DNA from: Elusimicrobiota bacterium
Lineage (GTDB): Bacteria > Elusimicrobiota > Elusimicrobia > UBA1565
Direction of reading: 5' to 3'
DNA length: 15,638 nucleotides
Assembly: GCA_043819795.1 (NCBI GenBank)
Contig: JBDREN010000006.1
Coordinates: 1 to 15,638, forward strand
The notes below the pieces were generated by a model. That model did no database searches. It had not been told where the DNA came from and saw only the letters and a program-made list of their open reading frames with translations. Of this stretch, positions 1 to 10,292 are shown piece by piece (the first letter of the stretch is position 1; every line of letters starts with the position of its first letter). The position numbers and the translations under genes were made by a program.

Positions 1-1581
1 CGCTCCTCTGACCCGCAGATCGCCCAGCCCCTGCCCGCGTTTGAGTTCGCTGTTAGTCGCTTCGATCCCCGCGCGCGGGGCGTAGCGCTCGCGAAATGCC
101 TCCGTCTGCTCCGCCGCCCGCCGCCGGGACGGCAGGTTGGCCTTGAGCGCGATGAGCGCCAGCGTCGTTCGACCCAGAGGCTCTCGACGGGTCTTGCCGC
201 TCTCCACCGTCAGCGCCGGGCACCAGCTCCGCCGGCGGCAGCGCACGCAGCAGGCCGTCGGCAGCTGGAGCAGCGCCACCGGCCCGTCTTGCGGGTCATC
301 GCGCAGCACGGTCTGCAGCGCCGTCACCCCGCAAGGGCAAGTGGACGGCGGCTGGGACGGCACGAGTTGCACGGTGAACTCGGCATCCCGCACGCACAGC
401 GTCGGTGCCGCCGCCTCGGTTCCCGCGCTCCCCGGTTGCGGGGCGATCAACTCCACCCCCTGCCGGGCGCACCCCGCCACGTTCTCCACCGAGCCGAATG
501 CCGTGTCGGCGAGCAGTTCCTCCGGCGCGATCTCCCGCGCGGCCAGCGCCTCCACCGTGGGGGCCACCCGCTCGGCATCGCCCTCGCACGACCGCTCCAG
601 GCTGGCGTGGGTTATTAACTGCACGGCATTGTCGGGATCGCACGTTTCGGCGATCAGCGCCTCGTAGCCCTGGCCCTTGTGCCCGGAATAGGTCACCTCT
701 GGATCGTGCGGCGTCTGCAGGCTGTTGCCCCCGATCTCCTTGGGGTCCTTCAAGTCCACGGGCGCGTCCCCGTCATCCCGGTCATCGTCGTCATCGCGCG
801 GCTTGACCGCGCGCGCCCCGATCGTGCACTGCTCCGACAGCAGCCGCTCCAGCAGCTTGAACTCCTCCATCTTGCTGATCGCCCGATGGCCGCTGAAGCG
901 CTCGACCAGCCGATACAGGTCCCGCGCCACGACGCGAAGCCTGCGCGGTCCCTCCTCCCGCCGTGCGTCCCGATACCAGCTTTGTTCCCCGTGCCGCTTC
1001 AAGAGCCCCGCTGGCAGCCGGTCGTGCAAGTCGCGGTGCCCCTTATAAAGCGCGTGCAGGAACACCCGGATCGTCTCGCAAAACAGCCCCAGTCGATTGA
1101 GCCTCGCGAAATTCGACAGGATGTGCGTCGAGTCCAGCCGTTGGCGGTCGATCCGAACGCCCAGCGCCGCAATCAGCTCGTCGGTGATCCGACGAAACGC
1201 CAGCTTCCCCTTGCCGCTCGCCATCAGTTTCGCCCGGAAGTTGTGCAGCGTCTTCTGGCAGAGGTCTGCCTCGTCAGGATCCAGTTCGAAGGCGCACCAC
1301 CATCGCGTGTCGAAACGCAACGCATCCAGAGCTTCCTCGTCGGTCAGGTCGTTGGCCTCTTTCAGGATCAGCGTCCCCATCACCAAAGCCACCGGCCGAT
1401 TTGGACGCCCCGCCCCCTCGTCGTAGAACTCGGCGAACTCGGGCTCCGCGCGGACAAGAATCGGCAAGGCCTTCTCGCGGAACGGTCCCGCCCAACTCTT
1501 CTCGCACGCCACTCGCTTCTTCGGCGGCAGGAGCCCGGCCGCTCCGAACATATCCTGCTGTGGGTCCGTGGGTCGAAACAT
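1..1581 (-). CDS. DDE transposase, IS1182-family-like (3' end beyond window)
   Basis: Not in the ORF track because there is no stop in the window. Translated by hand from ATG at 1581 (SD GGAGAG upstream): MFRPTDPQQDMFG...GRPNRPVALVMGTLILKEANDLTDEEAL...KTLHNFR...RLDSTHILSN...SLQTPHDPEVTY...GYEALIAET...LLADTAFGS...CPCG...CCVRC...FRERYAPRAGIEATNSELKRGQGLGDLRVRGA. Open for 527 codons, with candidate D/D/E residues in RLDST, LADTA and GIEAT. Family assignment is from motif recognition. Confidence 0.9.
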   Translation of the reverse strand, partial: MFRPTDPQQDMFGAAGLLPPKKRVACEKSWAGPFREKALPILVRAEPEFAEFYDEGAGRPNRPVALVMGTLILKEANDLTDEEALDALRFDTRWWCAFELDPDEADLCQKTLHNFRAKLMASGKGKLAFRRITDELIAALGVRIDRQRLDSTHILSNFARLNRLGLFCETIRVFLHALYKGHRDLHDRLPAGLLKRHGEQSWYRDARREEGPRRLRVVARDLYRLVERFSGHRAISKMEEFKLLERLLSEQCTIGARAVKPRDDDDDRDDGDAPVDLKDPKEIGGNSLQTPHDPEVTYSGHKGQGYEALIAETCDPDNAVQLITHASLERSCEGDAERVAPTVEALAAREIAPEELLADTAFGSVENVAGCARQGVELIAPQPGSAGTEAAAPTLCVRDAEFTVQLVPSQPPSTCPCGVTALQTVLRDDPQDGPVALLQLPTACCVRCRRRSWCPALTVESGKTRREPLGRTTLALIALKANLPSRRRAAEQTEAFRERYAPRAGIEATNSELKRGQGLGDLRVRGA

Positions 1582-1585
1582 GGTC

Positions 1586-1611
1586 TCTCCGTACGCGCGC
1601 GCGTACGGAGA
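1586..1611. promoter_or_regulatory. Perfect 26-bp palindrome covering the transposase Shine-Dalgarno
   Basis: TCTCCGTACGCGCGCGCGTACGGAGA is self-complementary over all 26 nt. On the minus strand its 3' arm contains GGAGA just before ATG 1581. Confidence 0.8.
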
Positions 1612-1639
1612 AGTTAGCTTTTCCCGTCGATAACTACAA
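1611..1639 (-). promoter_or_regulatory. Putative sigma-70 promoter of the transposase
   Basis: Minus strand TTGTAG (1639-1634), 17-nt spacer, TAACTT (1616-1611). Confidence 0.5.
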
Positions 1640-1693
1640 GCGCCCTTCTCCACCCGAAACCTCAGCCGTCGGCGCCCGTCCTGCTGGGACTTT

Positions 1694-1783
1694 TCAGAGT
1701 AGGGGAGGCCCGATTTCGTCCATGACGAAACCGGGTCCTCCCCCCTCACAGACCCGTGCGTGCAGAATTACCGCACACGGTTC
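1694..1783 (-). ncRNA. Group II intron domains V and VI
   Basis: DV is GAACCGTGTGCGGTAATTCTGCACGCACGGGTC (33 nt, AC bulge). DVI is GAGGGGGGAGGA-CCCGGTTTCGTC-ATG-GACGAAATCGGG-CCTCCCCT-A-CTC followed by TGA. Confidence 0.9.
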
Positions 1784-1795
1784 CTCAAGCATGAC

Positions 1796-3115
1796 TCACC
1801 TCGCTGTCATCGGGTGAGTGATCCATGGGGGCAGCAGCGGGTTTTTGCTGAGGATGGCCTCGTACTTGGGCCAGTTTACGGTCTTGCCTCGAGTTCGTCG
1901 GTTTAGCCATTTCTTCCACATACAGCGAACACCCCGGTAGAACCCCCACATACGTTGGTAGTTCGTTGGGCGTCCGTAGTATTGGTAATGGCCCCGCAAC
2001 TTCCGGTTGAGGGCTTCGCATTGCTTCGGCACAGGATCATGCCTATGCTTTTGGCACCATTCCGAAATCCCCCGCAAGCTCCGTCTAATTCGCTTGCGCA
2101 TCGTTCGGACATGGACTATGAAACGCCCCCGTCGGCTCCACGCGCATTTATGCGTGAAACCAAGGAAGTCGAAGGTGTCTGGCTTTCTCCCTCCAGGCCG
2201 CTCCGCCTTTTGTAGGGCGAAACGCCCGAACTCAATGAGTCGGGTCTTTTCCGGATGGAGAGTCAGGCCATACTCCGCGAACCTCTTGGTTAGGACCATC
2301 AGCATCCCTTCCGCATCCTTCCGGTACTGAAAACAGAGAATGAAGTCGTCGGCGTATCTCACCAGGTGTGCTTCCCCTCGCGTTCGGGGCTTGACCACCT
2401 CCTCAAACCACGTGTCCAGCACATAGTGGAGGTAGATGTTCGCGAGCAAAGGGCTGATGATCTGCCCTTGTCCCGTGCCCGTCTTTGTGATGAGAAGCCG
2501 CCCCTTATCGATAACCCCGACGTTAATCCATTTCCCGATCAGTCGTAGAATGCTTCCGTCTACTACTCTCCTCTTGATTATCTCAATGAGTTGCCTTCTC
2601 ACGATCGAGTCGAAGTAGCTCTGGATATCGGCTTCCAGTACGTAGGACACCGGGTGGCGGCATATAAGCCTACCCACCTGGTCCAGTGCGTCATGTGGGC
2701 TGCGCCCAGGACGGAATCCGTGCGAACATTCCAGGAAGTCAACCTCATAGATCGCGTTCAGCGGTTCGAGCGTCGCCTTCTGCACGATCTTATCCTCCAG
2801 GGATGGAATCGATAGCGGACGACGCTTATCGCTGCCATCTCCCTTCGGAATATAGACCCTGCGCAAAGGTTGCGCCCGGTACCGCCAATTCTTTACGCGA
2901 TCATGAAGCCCCCGGATGTTCGCTCGGACGTCCTTCACATACTCCCGATACGTGACGCCATCCACACCCGCACTTGCGTCCTTCCGTAGGCCCTTAAAGG
3001 CCCGATACAACGCCTCCTCCGTGAGCAGGTGAGCGATCGAGAGGAACTGCCGCTCCCTGTCTCCCTTTGCCAACTCGGCTATTCGGCTGAGTTTCGTTGA
3101 CACGGACTCAGGCAT
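1796..3115 (-). CDS. ltrA: Group II intron reverse transcriptase/maturase, no endonuclease domain
   Basis: ASAGVDG (RT0), RRVYIPK, RPLSIPSLEDKIVQ, SHGFRPGRS, ADIQSYFD, GTGQGQIISPLLANIYLH, catalytic YADD, FDFLGF, domain X (LRGHYQYYG). No C-terminal HNH. SD GGAGG upstream. Confidence 0.96.
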   Translation of the reverse strand: MPESVSTKLSRIAELAKGDRERQFLSIAHLLTEEALYRAFKGLRKDASAGVDGVTYREYVKDVRANIRGLHDRVKNWRYRAQPLRRVYIPKGDGSDKRRPLSIPSLEDKIVQKATLEPLNAIYEVDFLECSHGFRPGRSPHDALDQVGRLICRHPVSYVLEADIQSYFDSIVRRQLIEIIKRRVVDGSILRLIGKWINVGVIDKGRLLITKTGTGQGQIISPLLANIYLHYVLDTWFEEVVKPRTRGEAHLVRYADDFILCFQYRKDAEGMLMVLTKRFAEYGLTLHPEKTRLIEFGRFALQKAERPGGRKPDTFDFLGFTHKCAWSRRGRFIVHVRTMRKRIRRSLRGISEWCQKHRHDPVPKQCEALNRKLRGHYQYYGRPTNYQRMWGFYRGVRCMWKKWLNRRTRGKTVNWPKYEAILSKNPLLPPWITHPMTAR

Positions 3116-3850
3116 CTGGGTGCCTCCGTGTTTCCCGCAGCCGGCACGTCCGCTTGTTCGCCCCTTCCCTCCAGCGGGTCCCGGAGCCGGGTAAGAAATC
3201 GACGCGAACCATTAGGATCGAGCCTATCCGTTGTCCACCCCTTTCGCGACGGTGGTGCCTCACTAGCCCTTCCATAGGTCGCTACCGATTCCTCCCCTCA
3301 TCCCGGTTCCCCGCCTTCCTCGGTACTATTGGGTTCGTAAGACTCCTCCTCGCCCATCCCAACGGCCTCTGGTCTCCCTTGGCCAACTGGTACCCTCGCT
3401 GGACGCTTCCTTCGCTCCTTGATCCGGCGCGTCCTGCCAACCAAGGCCAGGTCCGTTGCTGTCGGGTGGACCACACCCGTTTTCTGCGTGGAGGCGAGGA
3501 GGCCTCCCAGGTTCCTGGGGAATCACTTTGAAAGCGTGCCCCGGGCTAGAGACTCCGGCGGCTCCCAGCGACCTCGCATATCGGTCACCCGGATTCTGCC
3601 TTCCGCCTCGTAAATAGCGTCGGCTTCCGCAACTGCATTCGATTTCGGAGCTGAATCCTCACGGCCCGCTTCCTTGCTGTCTACGCTTCACCCTGCCGGA
3701 GCAGCCACTGGCCACCCGACAAAGTGCAAGACTCGCTACCAGTCTGCCCGCTACGGCCTTGACCGGGCTGGATTTTCACCAGCTGGATTCCATCGCAAGG
3801 TTTCACACGCTCATTCGCGATCCTCCTCGCCCAAGCTTTTCCTGGCGCGA

Positions 3851-3863
3851 TTACGAGGGAATC
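3851..3863 (-). repeat. Outer part of the IS left terminal inverted repeat (inner part at ~1686-1693)
   Basis: GATTCCCTCGTAA on the minus strand directly abuts the intron 5' end and continues as AAAGTCCC after the intron 3' end. Confidence 0.65.
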
Positions 3864-3893
3864 AACTTTGTTAACTAAGTTAACACTTGACGC
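3864..3893. repeat. REP-like palindromic repeat, copy A (truncated on the left by the IS)
   Basis: AACTTTGTTAACTAAGTTAACACTTGACGC contains the palindrome TGTTAACT-A-AGTTAACA. 3862-3880 is identical to 6127-6145 over 19 nt. Confidence 0.75.
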
Positions 3894-4028
3894 CCTAGAC
3901 GCCGGGGGCTTTGCCCCCGGCCAATATGGTAAAGTTACCAGAAGTGTCGCCGTAATGCCGCGAAATAGGATTACGGGCTCCCGCGACGCCGTTGGGTCAC
4001 GGGGACCTCGTCGTCGCGCGGCTCCTGC

Positions 4029-4568
4029 ATGAAGCGCCTTGTTTCGCCTTTCTCGAGGGCCATGGTCTCTCTGGGCATCGTGGCGGCCGTCTTTCCCCTG
4101 GCCGCCTACACTTCGGTCGAGCTCACCTCCACGCCTTGGTTCTGCGGCTCCTGCCATGAGATGGAGCCGGTGAAGGAGGGCTGGATGGCCTCCGAGCATT
4201 ATCCCCGCCCGGACAGGCCCAAGGGGAGGCGCGGGGCCTCGTGCCGGGATTGCCACTTGCCGGGCTGGCATCATCCCGCGTCCGTGTTGGCGCAGAAGAT
4301 CCGGCACGGCCTCAAGGACGGCTACCGACATTTCTTGCCGGCCCGGGATCACGAAGCCAAGGACTTCTATTTTGCGCTGAAACAGGTGTACCTCAGCCAG
4401 ACGACCGACGCCATGTGCCTGCGGTGCCATGCCACAGTGCGGGATCCCGCTGAAGACGTCATCGAGACGGGCCTGGGAGAGATCCGCGGCCTGCACTCCT
4501 CGAAGGAAGCGACGGTCCTGCGCTGCGTGACCTGCCACAAGAACATGGGCCATGGGATCTACGAATGA
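4029..4568 (+). CDS. NapC/NirT-family membrane-anchored tetraheme cytochrome c
   Basis: N-terminal hydrophobic helix followed by TSTPWFCGSCHEM. Four CxxCH motifs (CGSCH, CRDCH, CLRCH, CVTCH) and C-terminal CHKNMGH. The start could instead be ATG 4062. Confidence 0.88.
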   Translation: MKRLVSPFSRAMVSLGIVAAVFPLAAYTSVELTSTPWFCGSCHEMEPVKEGWMASEHYPRPDRPKGRRGASCRDCHLPGWHHPASVLAQKIRHGLKDGYRHFLPARDHEAKDFYFALKQVYLSQTTDAMCLRCHATVRDPAEDVIETGLGEIRGLHSSKEATVLRCVTCHKNMGHGIYE

Positions 4569-6110
4569 CACGGCTGACCCGCCGCGAGTTCCTGGGCGCC
4601 GGGGCCTTATCAACCCTGGGCGCCATCCTGCTGCCTGAGACGGTCTGGGCCAAGCTCGGCAAGACGGCCCCGCCGCGGGGTTATGCCGTGACGGGTTGGT
4701 CCGGGAACGAGTTCGAGCTCCCCCACAAGTTCCGCGACGGTTTCTCCCCGCCCGAGGCGAGCCCCTCGGAGACCCGCGAGGTCGTGGTGGTCGGATCGGG
4801 GATAGCGGGCCTGGCCGCCGGGTTCAGGCTGCGGCATACCGACCTTCTCGTTCTCGAGACCGCGCGGGACAGCGGCGGCAACTCCCAGGCCGGCCGATGG
4901 CGCGACATCCCCCTTCAACATCGGCGCGGCATATTTCGTCCAGAACGACGACGAGATCGGCGCTCTGCTTGCGGAGGCGGGCCTCAAGCTCGCCTCGGTC
5001 AGGAAGCCCTTGGATCGCTGGTACATCGGTGGGAAGTGGGTTGTCGAACCGTGGGACGAGCCCGTGATGGCCGGCCTGCCGCCGGGCCTGCGCCGAGCCA
5101 TGCGAGGCCTGAAGAAGGCCCTGGAGGACGTATCGGAGGGGCCGGATTACCCGCACATCCCCTACCGGAGAAGCTCCCGCAGAGCCCTGGAGCTGGACCG
5201 GATCTCGTTCGCCGAATGGCTCAAGCCGTACGCCCACCCCGACCTGATGCCGTTCCTGATCTCGTACTGCTATTCGGCGATGGGAGCCCCCCCGGAAATG
5301 GTGTCCGCTTACGGCGGCGTCAATTTCTACTCGGAGATCCTCGCCGACATCCACGCCCCCCCCATCGGCAACGCGGCCATCGTCAAGAGCCTCGTCCAGG
5401 GCATCGAGTCCGCGGGCGCCGGCAGGATCCGCAACGGGTGCCACGTCCATAAGGTCTCGCCGGCCCCCGACGGCTCGGCCATCGTGCGATATGTCAGGGG
5501 CGGGGACAGTCTCGCCGTGAAGGCCAAGCGCGTCGTCCTTGCGGTCCCGTATTTCGCCGCGAGCGCCCTTCTGGACCCCCTCCCGGACGGTCAGCGCTAC
5601 GCGCTGAAAGCGCAGCAATACGCCTCGTACGTGGTCGCCAATCTCTGCTTCGACCGGCGGGTCAGCCTCGAAAGCTACGCCAGCTCCACGGGGGGGAAGG
5701 TCGCATTCGAGGATTTCATCCCGGCAGACTGGGTGGCCGGGACGCCGCGGCCGGGCGGGGCCGGCGGGCCTCAAGTCATCACCGTGTTCGCGCCCCTGCG
5801 CGAGTCCCTAGCCGGCCGCTGGCGCCTGCTGTCCGCCGCGCCCGAGGAGTTCGCGGCGCCGTTCGTCCAGGCCTTCGAGAAGCTTGTTCCCGGCGCCTCC
5901 AGGCACCTCAGAGAAGCGCACATGACGCGGTGGGGGCACGCGATCCTCGTGAACAGGCCGGGCATGTTCACCCGGTGGCTCCCCAGCATCCAGAAGAGGA
6001 TCGGCCCGGTCCTGCTGGCCCACAGCGACGGGCAGGGGCTTCCCGCGTTCGAATCCGCGGTCTACGAGGGGCTGGCCGCAGCACGACACGTCCTCGAGGC
6101 CTGGAGATAG
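4565..6110 (+). pseudogene. Tat-exported FAD-dependent oxidoreductase (flavin amine-oxidase/HemY-like superfamily) with +1 frameshift at C5 run 4909-4913
   Basis: Twin-arginine signal TRREFLG...VWA, Rossmann VVVVGSGIAGLAAG, and GGNS. Deleting one C from ATCCCCCTTC gives DIPFNIGAAYF in frame with ORF 5010-6110 (RWGHA, AHSDGQGLPAFESAVYEG), for 514 aa in total. May be a sequencing error rather than a true pseudogene. Confidence 0.85.
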
Positions 6111-6115
6111 TAGGC

Positions 6116-6212
6116 AGCGTCAGGTGTCAACTTTGTTAACTAAGTGAGGCCGGGGCTAGTCTTGGACCGCCATATGCGCTAAAGTTAGTTGACAGAGTTA
6201 ACAGCTGACGCT
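6116..6212. repeat. REP-like/REPIN-like inverted-repeat element, copy B
   Basis: Arms GCGTCAGGTGTCAACTTTGTTAACTAA (6117-6143) and TTAGTTGACAGAGTTAACAGCTGACGC (6185-6211) give 23/27 Watson-Crick pairs plus 2 G-T, around a 41-nt spacer. It fills the intergenic gap. Confidence 0.85.
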
Positions 6213-6522: not shown

Positions 6523-7248
6523 ATGGTGAATCTGTCTTTGCCCCGCAGAAGGAGGATCGGGCCGCTCGACGTCATCGAGTTCGCGGCGGGGCCGGAGGCG
6601 CCCACGATCGTCTGCTTCCACGGCTACGGGGCCAACGCGGCGGACCTGGCCCCCTTGGCCGGGGAGGTCCCCCTGGAGCGCCCGGCCCGCTGGATATTCC
6701 CCGAAGCCCCGCTCGAGATGGAGATGCTGCCCTCGGGCCGGATGTGGTTCCCCCTCGACGAGGAGAGGCTCGAACGCGCGCAGGTCATGGGCAAGCCTTT
6801 GGACTTCTCCGGCTCCAGGCCGCCCGGCCTCGACGAAGCGCATGAAACGGCCCGCGGCCTTGTCGACGCTTTGGAGACGCCCTGGAACCGCCTGATCCTG
6901 GGGGGCTTCAGCCAGGGCTCCTCGCTGGCTCTGGAGCTCGCGCTCAACGCGCCGGAGTCCCCGCTGGGGCTGTATATCCTGTCCGGCAATATCATGGATG
7001 AAGAATCCCTGCGCCGCCTCGCGCCGGCGCGCGCCGGCACGCCCTTTTTCCAGTCCCACGGCACGATGGACCCGCTCCTCGGCTACGAGGGCGCCAAGCG
7101 GCTCGAAGAAGCGCTCAAGGAGGCCGGGCTCAAGGGCGAGCTGCGCAGCTTCAACGACGGCCACACCATCCCGATGGACGTGCTCGTGGGCCTGGGCGGC
7201 TTCCTGGACGAGCGCATCGCCGAGGCGGGAAAGGAGGCGACGGAATGA
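6523..7248 (+). CDS. Phospholipase/carboxylesterase (alpha/beta hydrolase)
   Basis: FHGYGAN oxyanion motif, GFSQG nucleophile elbow, HGTMD (Asp) and GHTI (His) triad. Confidence 0.92.
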   Translation: MVNLSLPRRRRIGPLDVIEFAAGPEAPTIVCFHGYGANAADLAPLAGEVPLERPARWIFPEAPLEMEMLPSGRMWFPLDEERLERAQVMGKPLDFSGSRPPGLDEAHETARGLVDALETPWNRLILGGFSQGSSLALELALNAPESPLGLYILSGNIMDEESLRRLAPARAGTPFFQSHGTMDPLLGYEGAKRLEEALKEAGLKGELRSFNDGHTIPMDVLVGLGGFLDERIAEAGKEATE

Positions 7249-8636
7249 ACAGCGCACGTTTCGCGGGCATCGCCATGACCGGCCTTCTGCTGGCGGGATG
7301 CATGCCCATCCCCAAGGCTCCCTCGCGCCGCGACCCCTTCGCGGGCATCGACATCCGCACCGCCCCCCCGGCCTATCCCGGATTGACCCTGGCCCTGATC
7401 CTATCCGAGAACACCAAGGCCGCGATCGAGTACGGGCACCAGGGAAGCGCGATGGCGGGCTTCGACGTCAACCGGTTCATCGAGGAGGATATCGAAGTCT
7501 ATAAACGGAACTTCAAGACGGTCGTCAAGGTGGAGAAAATGGAGGAGGCCCGGGCGATCAACGCGGACCTGATCGCGCTCCTCGACACCTTCGTCGAGGC
7601 GAAGAGAATCTTCAAGATGGACTCCAGCGTGGTATTCTTCTCGCCGGACCAGCGCCAGATCGAGAAGATCGGCGCGCAAGGCGAAAGGAGCTTCTTTACC
7701 GCCAGCCCGGCGACGGTCGTTTCCGGGGTGGCGGAGGAAGTCAGGAGAGAGATCGAAAGCTCGCTGCGCGCGTCCGCGAAGCTGGCGGCATACGCGAAGA
7801 CCCGGGGGGGCTCGGCCCCTCGGAAGCCCACGCCCCCCGAGCCGGCGGCGAGGGCGATCCGTTCCGACGTGGACACGCCGGGCTACAAGCTCAACGAGCG
7901 TCCGGACGACTTCGCCCTCGTCATCGGCGTCGAGAAGTACTCCGACCTCCCCCCGGCCGAGTTCGCCAAGCGAGACGCCGAGGCGGTCAAGGAGCACCTG
8001 CTCGCCCTGGGCTTCCCCCGCCGCAACGTGATCCACCTCTCCGGGTCGCAGGCCGTGCGCTCGGCTCTGGCGAAATACCTTGAGGAGTGGCTGCCGAGGA
8101 ACGTCAAGCCCGAGAGCAGGGTGTTCTTCTACTTCTCCGGCCACGGCGCCCCGGACGCGCGGACGGGCGGGGCCTATCTCGTGCCCTGGGGCGGGGACGC
8201 GAACTTCCTGAAGAGCACCGGATACCCGTTGAAGGAGCTCTACCGGAGGCTGGACGCGCTCAAGGCCAAGGAGGTGGTCGTGGCCCTGGACGCCTGCTTC
8301 TCGGGAGCGGGCGGGCGCTCGGTCCTGGCCAAGGGCGCGCGGCCCCTGGTCCTCAAGGTGGACACCGGCAGTCCCTCCGGCGGCAAGATCACGCTGTTTA
8401 CCGCGGCCTCGGGGACCGAGATCACCTCCGCCCTGGACGACCAGGGCCACGGGATCTTCACCTACTTCTTCCTGAAGGGGCTCAACGGGGAGGCACGGGA
8501 CCGCTCGGGACGCGTGACCTCGAAGGGGCTTTACCGCTACCTGAAGCCGAAGGTCCAGGACGAGGCCCGCCGCCAAAACCGGGAGCAGACGCCCGGAGTA
8601 TTCTATCCCTCCGGCGCCGGCCCGGTCCTGCGATAG
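7245..8636 (+). CDS. Lipoprotein with C-terminal caspase-like (peptidase C14) domain
   Basis: Lipobox LLAGC, Pro-rich linker, FALVIGVEKY, YFSGHG (His), LDACFSG (Cys), HGIFTYFFLKGL, QTP. ATGA overlap with the upstream gene. Confidence 0.9.
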   Translation: MNSARFAGIAMTGLLLAGCMPIPKAPSRRDPFAGIDIRTAPPAYPGLTLALILSENTKAAIEYGHQGSAMAGFDVNRFIEEDIEVYKRNFKTVVKVEKMEEARAINADLIALLDTFVEAKRIFKMDSSVVFFSPDQRQIEKIGAQGERSFFTASPATVVSGVAEEVRREIESSLRASAKLAAYAKTRGGSAPRKPTPPEPAARAIRSDVDTPGYKLNERPDDFALVIGVEKYSDLPPAEFAKRDAEAVKEHLLALGFPRRNVIHLSGSQAVRSALAKYLEEWLPRNVKPESRVFFYFSGHGAPDARTGGAYLVPWGGDANFLKSTGYPLKELYRRLDALKAKEVVVALDACFSGAGGRSVLAKGARPLVLKVDTGSPSGGKITLFTAASGTEITSALDDQGHGIFTYFFLKGLNGEARDRSGRVTSKGLYRYLKPKVQDEARRQNREQTPGVFYPSGAGPVLR

Positions 8637-8708: not shown

Positions 8709-10292
8709 TCAGCCTTCGATGATCTCCTCGGCCAGCTCCCGGTCGACGTTCGACACGTACTCGATGCCGCTGATCCGAGCGGCCTCCTCGGTCAAGGCGC
8801 AGAGGTCGTCGCGGGTGATGTGCTCGAGCGAGAACTTCCTGGCCCCGCACATGAGCTGCCGCATCCCCTGGGCGCAGCGCTGCAGGTAGGAATAGACCCC
8901 GATCGCGCCCGTGGGGAGCTTGGCGAAGTCCTTCCCGTACTGCTCCTTGAGCGAATGCGCCTCGACGAAGATCTCCTCCACGGAATTCCCGAAGCGCTCC
9001 ACGAAGACCGGAGCCTTGCCCGAGGCGATCTTGTTGCCGATCGTCTTGCCGACCATCGCGGCCGTGAGCGGGGCCCGGGCCATGGTGATGATCTTGAAGT
9101 ACGGCGCCCCGAAGGCCAGGCCCTTGAATATCTGGTCCTCGAACACGAAGCCGCTCGCCACGGCGATGGGCGGGACGTACTCGCCCTTCTTGGCCAGGGT
9201 GTCGCAATACTGGTAGAGCAGGCTAAAAAGCTCGACGGGCGGCATGCCCCACTCGTTCATCATCTTCCAGGGGCTCATGCCCGTGCCGCCGCCGGCCGCG
9301 TCCACGGTCAGCATATCGATCTTGGCCTTCGAGGAGAATTTCACCGCGCGGGCGAGGTCCGCCGGGCGGTACGCGCCCGTCTTCAGGGTCACGTACCGGG
9401 CGCCGGCCTTGCGCAGCTGGTCCACCCGCTCCATGAAGCCCTCCTCGGTCACCATCCCCACCCGGGAATGGCGCTCGAACTCGGTGAAGCTGCCCTTCTC
9501 GAAGGCCTGGATGACGCCCTTGTCGTGGGGGTCGGGCAGGACGACGTAGCCCCTATCCTTGAGCATCTGGGCCTTTTTCAGGCTCTTGATCTTGACCTCT
9601 CCCCCGATGTTCTTGGCGCCCTGGCCCCACTTGAGCTCCACGGCCTTCACGCCCAGTTTCTGGAGCGCGTACTCCTGCACGCCCAGGCGGGTGTCCTCCA
9701 CGTTCGCCTGGACGATCACCGCGCCGTAGCCGCCCCTCTGCCATTGCCTGAAGAGCTTGACCCGGCGGGCCAGCTCGGGGGAGTCCGTCACCTTCCCTCT
9801 GGAAATGGTGGTCTCCGGGTCCATCCCGCAGACGTTCTCCCCCACGGTGAGGCCCACGCCGGAGATCGCGGCTCCCGCGGCGAGCCCCTCCCAGTTGTTC
9901 GACGCCACGTTCGTGGAGCCCATGCCCCCGAACACGATGGGGAGCTTCAGCTTGATGCCCGGGAACGCGCGGCCGATCTTGGTCTCGAGGTTCACGTTGG
10001 GGAAGATGGCCTTGTCCGAGTCGGCCTCGATCCCGTGCGCGCCGACCGCGGTCCCCATGATGTTGAAATGCGACAGGTCGACGGGATAGGCCTTCTCCCC
10101 GGCCGTGGTGATGATGCCGAAGGGTTGGGGATAGATGACCTCGTGGGCCCTAAGGGCGGACCTGCCCACCTCGCACATGCCGATGCACCCGTCCACGCAG
10201 GTGGAGCACAGCCCGCTCAAGGGGCTTACGGAATCCACGGTCCTGTTCTTCGTAAGAGTCGCCGCGCTGGCGTTCAATTTGATCGGAGCCAT
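8709..10292 (-). CDS. Stand-alone FMN-binding glutamate synthase family protein (GltB FMN-domain-like)
   Basis: ELKWGQGAKNIGGE, LKTGAY, TVDAAGGGTG, GGMGS, GENVCG and N-terminal CSTCVDGCIGMC. No glutamine amidotransferase domain. Confidence 0.9.
   Translation of the reverse strand: MAPIKLNASAATLTKNRTVDSVSPLSGLCSTCVDGCIGMCEVGRSALRAHEVIYPQPFGIITTAGEKAYPVDLSHFNIMGTAVGAHGIEADSDKAIFPNVNLETKIGRAFPGIKLKLPIVFGGMGSTNVASNNWEGLAAGAAISGVGLTVGENVCGMDPETTISRGKVTDSPELARRVKLFRQWQRGGYGAVIVQANVEDTRLGVQEYALQKLGVKAVELKWGQGAKNIGGEVKIKSLKKAQMLKDRGYVVLPDPHDKGVIQAFEKGSFTEFERHSRVGMVTEEGFMERVDQLRKAGARYVTLKTGAYRPADLARAVKFSSKAKIDMLTVDAAGGGTGMSPWKMMNEWGMPPVELFSLLYQYCDTLAKKGEYVPPIAVASGFVFEDQIFKGLAFGAPYFKIITMARAPLTAAMVGKTIGNKIASGKAPVFVERFGNSVEEIFVEAHSLKEQYGKDFAKLPTGAIGVYSYLQRCAQGMRQLMCGARKFSLEHITRDDLCALTEEAARISGIEYVSNVDRELAEEIIEG

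Follow-up and report, generated by a model that had tools for sequence, protein, structure and literature searches.

A Class E-Like Group II Intron Within the Left Terminal Inverted Repeat of an IS1182-Like Element in an Elusimicrobiota Genome

Introduction

The group II intron RmInt1 interrupts the transposase open reading frame (ORF) of ISRm2011-2, where splicing could restore the mRNA. RmInt1 has a multicopy insertion sequence (IS) as its target, and it is said to limit the spread of that IS (PMC5894124). Another described system is RmInt2 of Sinorhizobium meliloti GR4, all copies of which lie inside the terminal inverted repeats (IRs) of ISRm17 and for which retrohoming has been shown (PMC4615759; repeated in PMC5894124). 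Those experiments demonstrate that an endonuclease-less intron is able to home to IS IRs, and the same paper argues that IR targeting doubles the number of sites, secures one of them on the lagging-strand template, and bears on IS mobility. The idea of intron homing into IS IRs is already published for RmInt2, which uses both IRs of ISRm17 (PMC4615759).

Here, we analyze a 15,638-nt stretch of DNA (the window), contig C6 of a 4.99-Mb, 241-contig assembly (G000) of Elusimicrobiota bacterium GCA_043819795.1, in which a group II intron interrupts a DNA end of an IS, unlike RmInt1, which interrupts a transposase ORF. Like RmInt2, the window intron is endonuclease-less and IIB-like, lies inside the terminal IR of an IS, recognizes its target through EBS1, EBS2, and EBS3, and has a short EBS2 pairing; this comparison is made at the level of the IR. 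RmInt2 belongs to class D, is present in seven copies, and has been shown to home, whereas the window intron is class E-like, single-copy, located in the left IR of an IS1182-like element, and carries UCGCG...GA ends and an AAC triad. A disrupted intron on pRmeGR4b is assigned to class E (PMC5894124). An S. meliloti intron nearly identical to it resembles that of the window in its protein (46% amino acid identity), its 5-nt domain V (DV) loop, and the lack of an endonuclease (En) domain, but has an AGC triad and the end ACUCGAC, in contrast to the AAC and GA of the window clade. In the literature searched, IR homing is known for one rhizobial class D intron; the present case, a three-layer nest of genome repeat, IS, and intron, would extend it to another intron class and another IS family. 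The locus alone will not surprise a specialist, and it is the pattern across the clade that deserves further attention.

Results and Discussion

The split inverted repeat

The IS, the intron within it, and the flanking repeat are arranged as follows.

1..1581, minus strand: IS1182-like transposase gene, 527 codons without a stop, truncated where the contig begins; the protein has DUF772 and DDE_Tnp_1_6 domains (Pfam)
1586..1611, minus strand: perfect hairpin that masks the ribosome-binding site (RBS) of the transposase gene, also present in L003 and, in a shorter form, in L191
1611..1639, minus strand: predicted transposase promoter (TTGTAG, 17 nt, TAACTT), found by eye against L003 and L191 and below the promoter-scan threshold
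1693-1686, minus strand: 3' exon AAAGTCCC, the inner left IR from IR position 14 onward, with the +1 A as IBS3
3850-1694, minus strand: group II intron of 2,157 nt, 5' UCGCG, 3' GA, the sole copy in the assembly
3863-3851, minus strand: 5' exon GATTCCCTCGTAA, the outermost 13 bp of the left IR, holding IBS2 and IBS1
3864..3894, unstranded: what is left of a REP-like palindromic repeat of the genome, the IS being inserted at its hexamer AACTTT

The domain content of the transposase, the short terminal IRs, and the best NCBIfam match, NF033551, liken the element to the IS1182 family; it differs in that the transposase, which is C-terminally cut, scores 125.9 bits, under the family cut-off of 270. 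A gap of 112 nt separates the intron from the transposase gene.

In a related genome, G012, left ends without an intron (GATTCCCTCGTAAAAAGTC) stand ahead of homologous transposases (L003 and L009; the L009 transposase is 74% identical to that of the window over 392 aa), and the rejoined window halves have the sequence of these ends. In the window's own genome, a related IS has a downstream end (C108:3665) with the sequence GATTCCCTCGTAAGAACCCC, which matches the joined halves at 17/20 positions; its copy of the 13-mer that forms the 5' exon lies 339 nt past the last aligned transposase codon and continues with GAACCCC. This right-end comparison is with a related element, whose transposase is 50% and 80% identical to that of the window over two stretches, the window's own right IR being off the contig start. 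A preliminary description of the locus had proposed both a search for intron-free copies of the rejoined junction and a comparison with the right IR, and each returned a match. Because intron-free left ends exist in G012 and the same IR stands at the C108 end, comparison at the sequence level confirms that the split sequence is the left IR of an IS1182-like element, with the intron after base 13.

The 13-mer, expected 0.05 times in the genome, was found twice, each time at an IS end, and the 13-mer pattern matched 7/101 genomes against 2/101 for backwards controls. Both end types occur together on one 505-bp element in G012, which identifies AAAAG as left and GAACC as right. The terminal IRs are about 16 bp long, with both ends found on single elements in G012 and L199, and in all 11 distinct ends IR positions 9-13, 15, and 16 were invariant and position 14 was A or G. 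The intron replaces positions 14-16 (A/G-A-A) with TCG and keeps the outer 13 bp; the notion that its 3' tail rebuilds an IR was rejected, with 3/13 positions matching by eye. A 6-bp target duplication fits two cross-contig pairs in G091, and the three complete copies with both flanks all mismatch.

The repeat into which the IS is inserted consists of ~28-nt arms with variable spacers. There are 28 arms genome-wide (at most 4 mismatches in 28 nt), and the repeat recurs at window positions 6116-6212. The C108 IS end lies at the same AACTTT hexamer of the same repeat, so that the IS family is present there in two places. At three contig ends (C26:162, C42:141, and C111:2507), the end of a different element, GGATCTTCTCGG..., stands next to the same repeat arm, which suggests that the repeat is a target of more than one mobile element. 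Its identification as an integron attC site was discarded, since the box sequences misfit (by eye, against the known consensus). Elsewhere on the plus strand of the window, a flavin oxidoreductase gene at 4565-6110 is apparently frameshifted, with NAD_binding_8 in the ORF at 4565 and Amino_oxidase in the overlapping ORF at 5010; positions 7245-8636 encode a protein with a Peptidase_C14 domain, and positions 8709-10292 hold an ORF of 527 aa without a Pfam match (E 0.001).

The intron and its protein

Two regions of the intron bear on its classification.

1796..3115, minus strand: RT/maturase of 439 aa in domain IV, with YADD at residue 254; En domain not detected (Pfam)
1694..1783, minus strand: domains V and VI, with the AAC triad at 1782-1780, a 5-nt DV loop, and a bulged A at 1700, the seventh base from the 3' end

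A match to RF02005 (Rfam) at 3543-3776 (133.5 bits, E 2.3e-38) and the DV/DVI fold (z = -6.58) together provide the DI and DV/DVI parts that mark a six-domain group II ribozyme. The DV/DVI region scored 33.2 bits against RF00029 (E 1.9e-4), below the cut-off of 40, and the RT ORF scored 328.7 bits against TIGR04416, above the cut-off of 300. The GC content of the intron is 58%, against 67% for the genome. For comparison, 79 related loci were drawn from a genome collection, 57 of which form the group at 60 to 75% identity that we call the clade.

From the window alone, the 3' boundary has a one-A ambiguity, which is settled by the sister termini: CGGA is the end of 48/50 scored introns, and the next base is G in 27, A in 15, T in 4, and C in 2. 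Among 54 clade loci scored at the other end, 50 start with TCGCG. These ends, UCGCG...GA in the window intron, depart from GUGYG...AY, which is a consensus and not a strict rule, UUGCG...GU having been reported (PMC7923331). The DV triad is AAC, not AGC or CGC, in the window and in 50/57 clade loci (7 were unscored, and AGC was seen in none), and the combination of AAC with a GGA end also occurs in some more distant relatives. Near-identical sister introns with these unusual ends (99.7 to 100%) sit at different sites of one genome, in sets of which four and three copies were compared. Judged from these sister copies at several sites, the intron lineage is mobile, and the same copies argue that the UCGCG/GA ends and the AAC triad are working features. 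The literature searched did not describe the clade, its ends, or the AAC triad, which Simon et al. 2008 or Toro et al. 2002 may cover. Strict gamma-gamma' covariation with the GA end was ruled out, J2/3 being GGA in 29 and UGA in 10 of 49 loci. The clade offers many natural EBS/target pairs and what appears to be a mobile ribozyme with a non-consensus triad and ends, which would be useful for studies of catalytic-core tolerance.

In a quick tree that included the window, 20 clade loci, and a single reference for class E, with none for classes F and g and no row for the class C-like intron on C179, the window and the 20 loci formed a clade with support of 100, and the window protein fell within a 98-support group with an S.me.I4-like protein, apart from RmInt1. 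Among the best plasmid relatives of the window protein is the S. meliloti intron mentioned above, which has 99.1% identity to the disrupted intron of pRmeGR4b. The 419-aa intron protein on the same plasmid, taken as RmInt1 (class D), is 31.5% identical to the window protein, which lies outside the RmInt1 group. The absence of an En domain together with the 5-nt DV loop, which is described for IIE/IIF, fits class E and occurs in class F as well (PMC3753933). From these predicted features, an intact, class E-like intron is a fair label. The assembly holds five further group II intron DV/DVI matches, on C179, C95, C231, C108, and C122; the intron on C179 is class C-like at its 5' end, and the window RT shares 32% identity with the RTs on C95 and C179.

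Target recognition

Three elements of the intron face the exons.

3607..3613, minus strand: EBS1, UUACGAG, in a loop of the predicted fold, covarying with the targets across sisters
3637..3640, minus strand: probable core of EBS2 (GAAU), located in an 8-nt loop, pairing with ATTC at -12 to -9 and weaker than EBS1
3550..3550, minus strand: EBS3, U, intron nt 301, in a column that complements the +1 exon base in 40/43 loci; here U:A

EBS1 (TTACGAG, 3613-3607) is the exact complement of the 5' exon end CTCGTAA. The preliminary description had reported this 7/7 complementarity along with the intron coordinates and the exon split, all of which hold (3863-3851, 3850-1694, and 1693-1686). It had also taken the target to be a cis-acting IS end, and the analysis bears this out; the end also fits all three exon-binding elements (EBS1 at 7/7, EBS3 as U:A, and the 4-bp EBS2 core). 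Across the clade, the mean EBS1 6-mer pairing was 5.6/6 with an intron's own exons and 3.2 with swapped exons, and pairing of at least 5.5 was reached by 31/40 distinct loci with their own exons but by 1.1% of 1,360 swapped combinations; 45 loci were reduced to the 40 distinct ones, loci without a clean 5' junction being left out. EBS2 pairing was 4.7/6 for own and 4.1/6 for swapped exons, and the candidate EBS2 loop stands where several sisters pair with IBS2. The IIB-like EBS1-IBS1 and EBS3-IBS3 pairings are clear; EBS2-IBS2 is weak across the clade. Intron nt 256, the first guess for EBS3, fitted 81% and was beaten by nt 301 at 93%.

Perfect IBS1 sites number 175 in the genome, and ATTC is found at -12 to -9 in two of them, both of which are ends of this IS family, a filter that is partly circular because the EBS2 core was picked after the target was known. 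In all seven closely matching right-type ends (7/7), the +1 base is G, which would pair with EBS3 as a U:G wobble; two more distant right ends have A. Two targets per IS are consequently possible, but would be unequal, the left being better than the right. The preliminary description had envisaged a multicopy target with potentially two sites per IS, which goes beyond the single copy found, the intron-free right end on C108, and the wobble at EBS3 in the right ends.

No second intron copy was found in the assembly, which is fragmented into 241 contigs, and none of 93 metagenome matches to the 5' junction resembled the intron or the IS. A DNA search of 400 other genomes of the phylum gave no close intron, with matches of 31 to 190 nt in two of them; an order-wide protein search gave relatives in 4/100 genomes, at 45 to 50% identity only; and viral contigs contributed three loci at 42 to 44%. 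The closest protein found was P0001, at 85%.

Origin of the insertion and its consequences

Sequence-specific transposase contacts are usually located in the inner IR bases of DDE elements. We consider it probable that the intron came to lie between left IR bases 13 and 14 by ordinary retrohoming into its cognate target, leaving an IS end that is likely poorly usable next to an open transposase gene. Homing into the IR is our inference: by analogy with other group II introns, the excised intron RNA and the RT would have reverse-spliced into a strand of the target DNA and, the endonuclease being absent, copying would have been primed from the replication fork. The part of the IR that binds transposase would then be broken at the DNA level, beyond repair by splicing. 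Since splicing cannot mend DNA and the inner IR bases usually contact transposase, loss of the left end, and with it immobilization of this IS end, is likely. Were the split end dead, the intron would cap its own target supply at the DNA level.

The transposase is intact, as the preliminary description had proposed, insofar as its ORF is open for 527 codons to the contig edge. Directly ahead of the RBS hairpin, and downstream of the intron, stands a promoter-like sequence that the window shares with L003 and L191; it suggests that transposase expression is unaffected and that the intron depends on a promoter outside the IS. Transposase produced from this predicted promoter could move other copies, and new IS copies would provide new targets, left ends being better than right ones. 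The preliminary description had the intron depend on read-in transcription from the host flank. The surroundings lend this no support: the neighboring gene at 4029 (plus strand) is divergent and points away from the intron, no co-oriented host gene lies upstream of it, and a promoter scan of 1500-4600 gave no promoter-like sites. As a guess, an extended -10-like sequence, TGTTAACTT, in the repeat arm (3885-3877) may give a short 5' exon that still contains IBS1 and IBS2. Two 151-nt contigs from an RNA run, identical to the transposase gene, were not accepted as transcription. In public runs, 5 to 7% of words were present, and neither intron junction was covered.

The intron could instead be cargo, if the outer 13 bp suffice for transposase and the IS still moves with the intron inside. 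In its favor, the true tip retains positions 1-13 unbroken, and no longer stretch is identical in left and right ends; however, positions 14-16, conserved at both ends in 11/11 distinct ends, are changed here, and a second IS-plus-intron copy was not found in the assembly or among the metagenome junction matches, so that we regard cargo as unlikely. An off-target landing, with the real home being some other sequence that ends in CTCGTAA, would account for the single copy and for an EBS2 pairing of just 4 bp, and off-target copies do exist in the clade (L051 pairs 3.5/6). Against it, EBS1 (7/7) and EBS3 both fit, and the sole two genome sites with IBS1 and the IBS2 core are IS ends; we think such a landing quite unlikely. 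Finally, a misjoin that fused an intron to an IS end might be suspected in an assembly of 241 contigs, with neither junction covered by the public runs examined, but both junctions fall at the very base predicted by the intron-free ends, the sister termini, EBS1, and EBS3, which makes this explanation highly improbable. Retrohoming into the cognate IR end is the reading we prefer.

Sister introns and their sites

The EBS1s of the sister introns differ from that of the window. Readable 5' flanks were available for 53/57 clade loci (L045, L057, L062, and L074 were left out), and sites were assigned by flank comparison, inspection, and Pfam searches of 145/163 chosen flank ORFs. IS110, IS1380/MITE, or IS1182-type ends accounted for 27 of the 53, 16 of them with an adjoining transposase or MITE; this count covers clade loci alone. 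In seven loci, the intron borders the right subterminal IR of an IS110-family element on its outer side and the transposase is present; nine more have the same motif with no transposase seen. The CTAG that adjoins an IS1380 IR is occupied at two loci, one at a left and one at a right end, with one more at a similar motif; five loci, all in one genome, adjoin a MITE with an IS1380 IR, both ends of which are occupied. A CTAG beside a different IS1182-type left IR holds two loci, and a similar motif holds one. The other readable loci comprise two in IS1380 ORFs, five in other introns (by eye), eight at a short motif, and 11 that were unassigned or too short. The nearest sister found (75% aa identity) has IS1380-type ends as its target. 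Most sisters at IS ends occupy the edge of the end and are oriented outward; the window intron, by contrast, lies inside the IR and reads inward. The preliminary description had set sister introns in unrelated targets against its reading; at 60 to 75% identity other targets are indeed used, but these are often other IS ends.

The clade loci are kin and not independent, and by EBS1 type about 4/12 types, the window included and grouped by eye, aim at IS ends. These types are scattered in the tree. It is conceivable, if still rather doubtful, that an abundant class E-like clade with a rewired ribozyme (UCGCG, GA, and AAC) has been repeatedly and independently retargeted to the ends of unrelated ISs, acting as a specialist parasite and a brake; its targets would be the interior of an IS1182-like IR, the edge of the IS110/IS1111 subterminal IR, and the target sites of IS1380 and IS1182 elements.

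IS110-type elements have a circle-junction promoter. Five introns (L014, L020, L026, L043, and L072) are inserted just 3' of a TTGACA box at an IS110-family right end and could break such a promoter. Eight sisters (L034-L036, L039, L042, L049, L050, and L053) lie in a short dispersed motif, GGCGAAC...GGCGCA, followed by AGCTGG...CTAACGCC. Five others (L028, L029, L075, L040, and L047) are nested in other group II introns, one of them in domain VI of a close relative.
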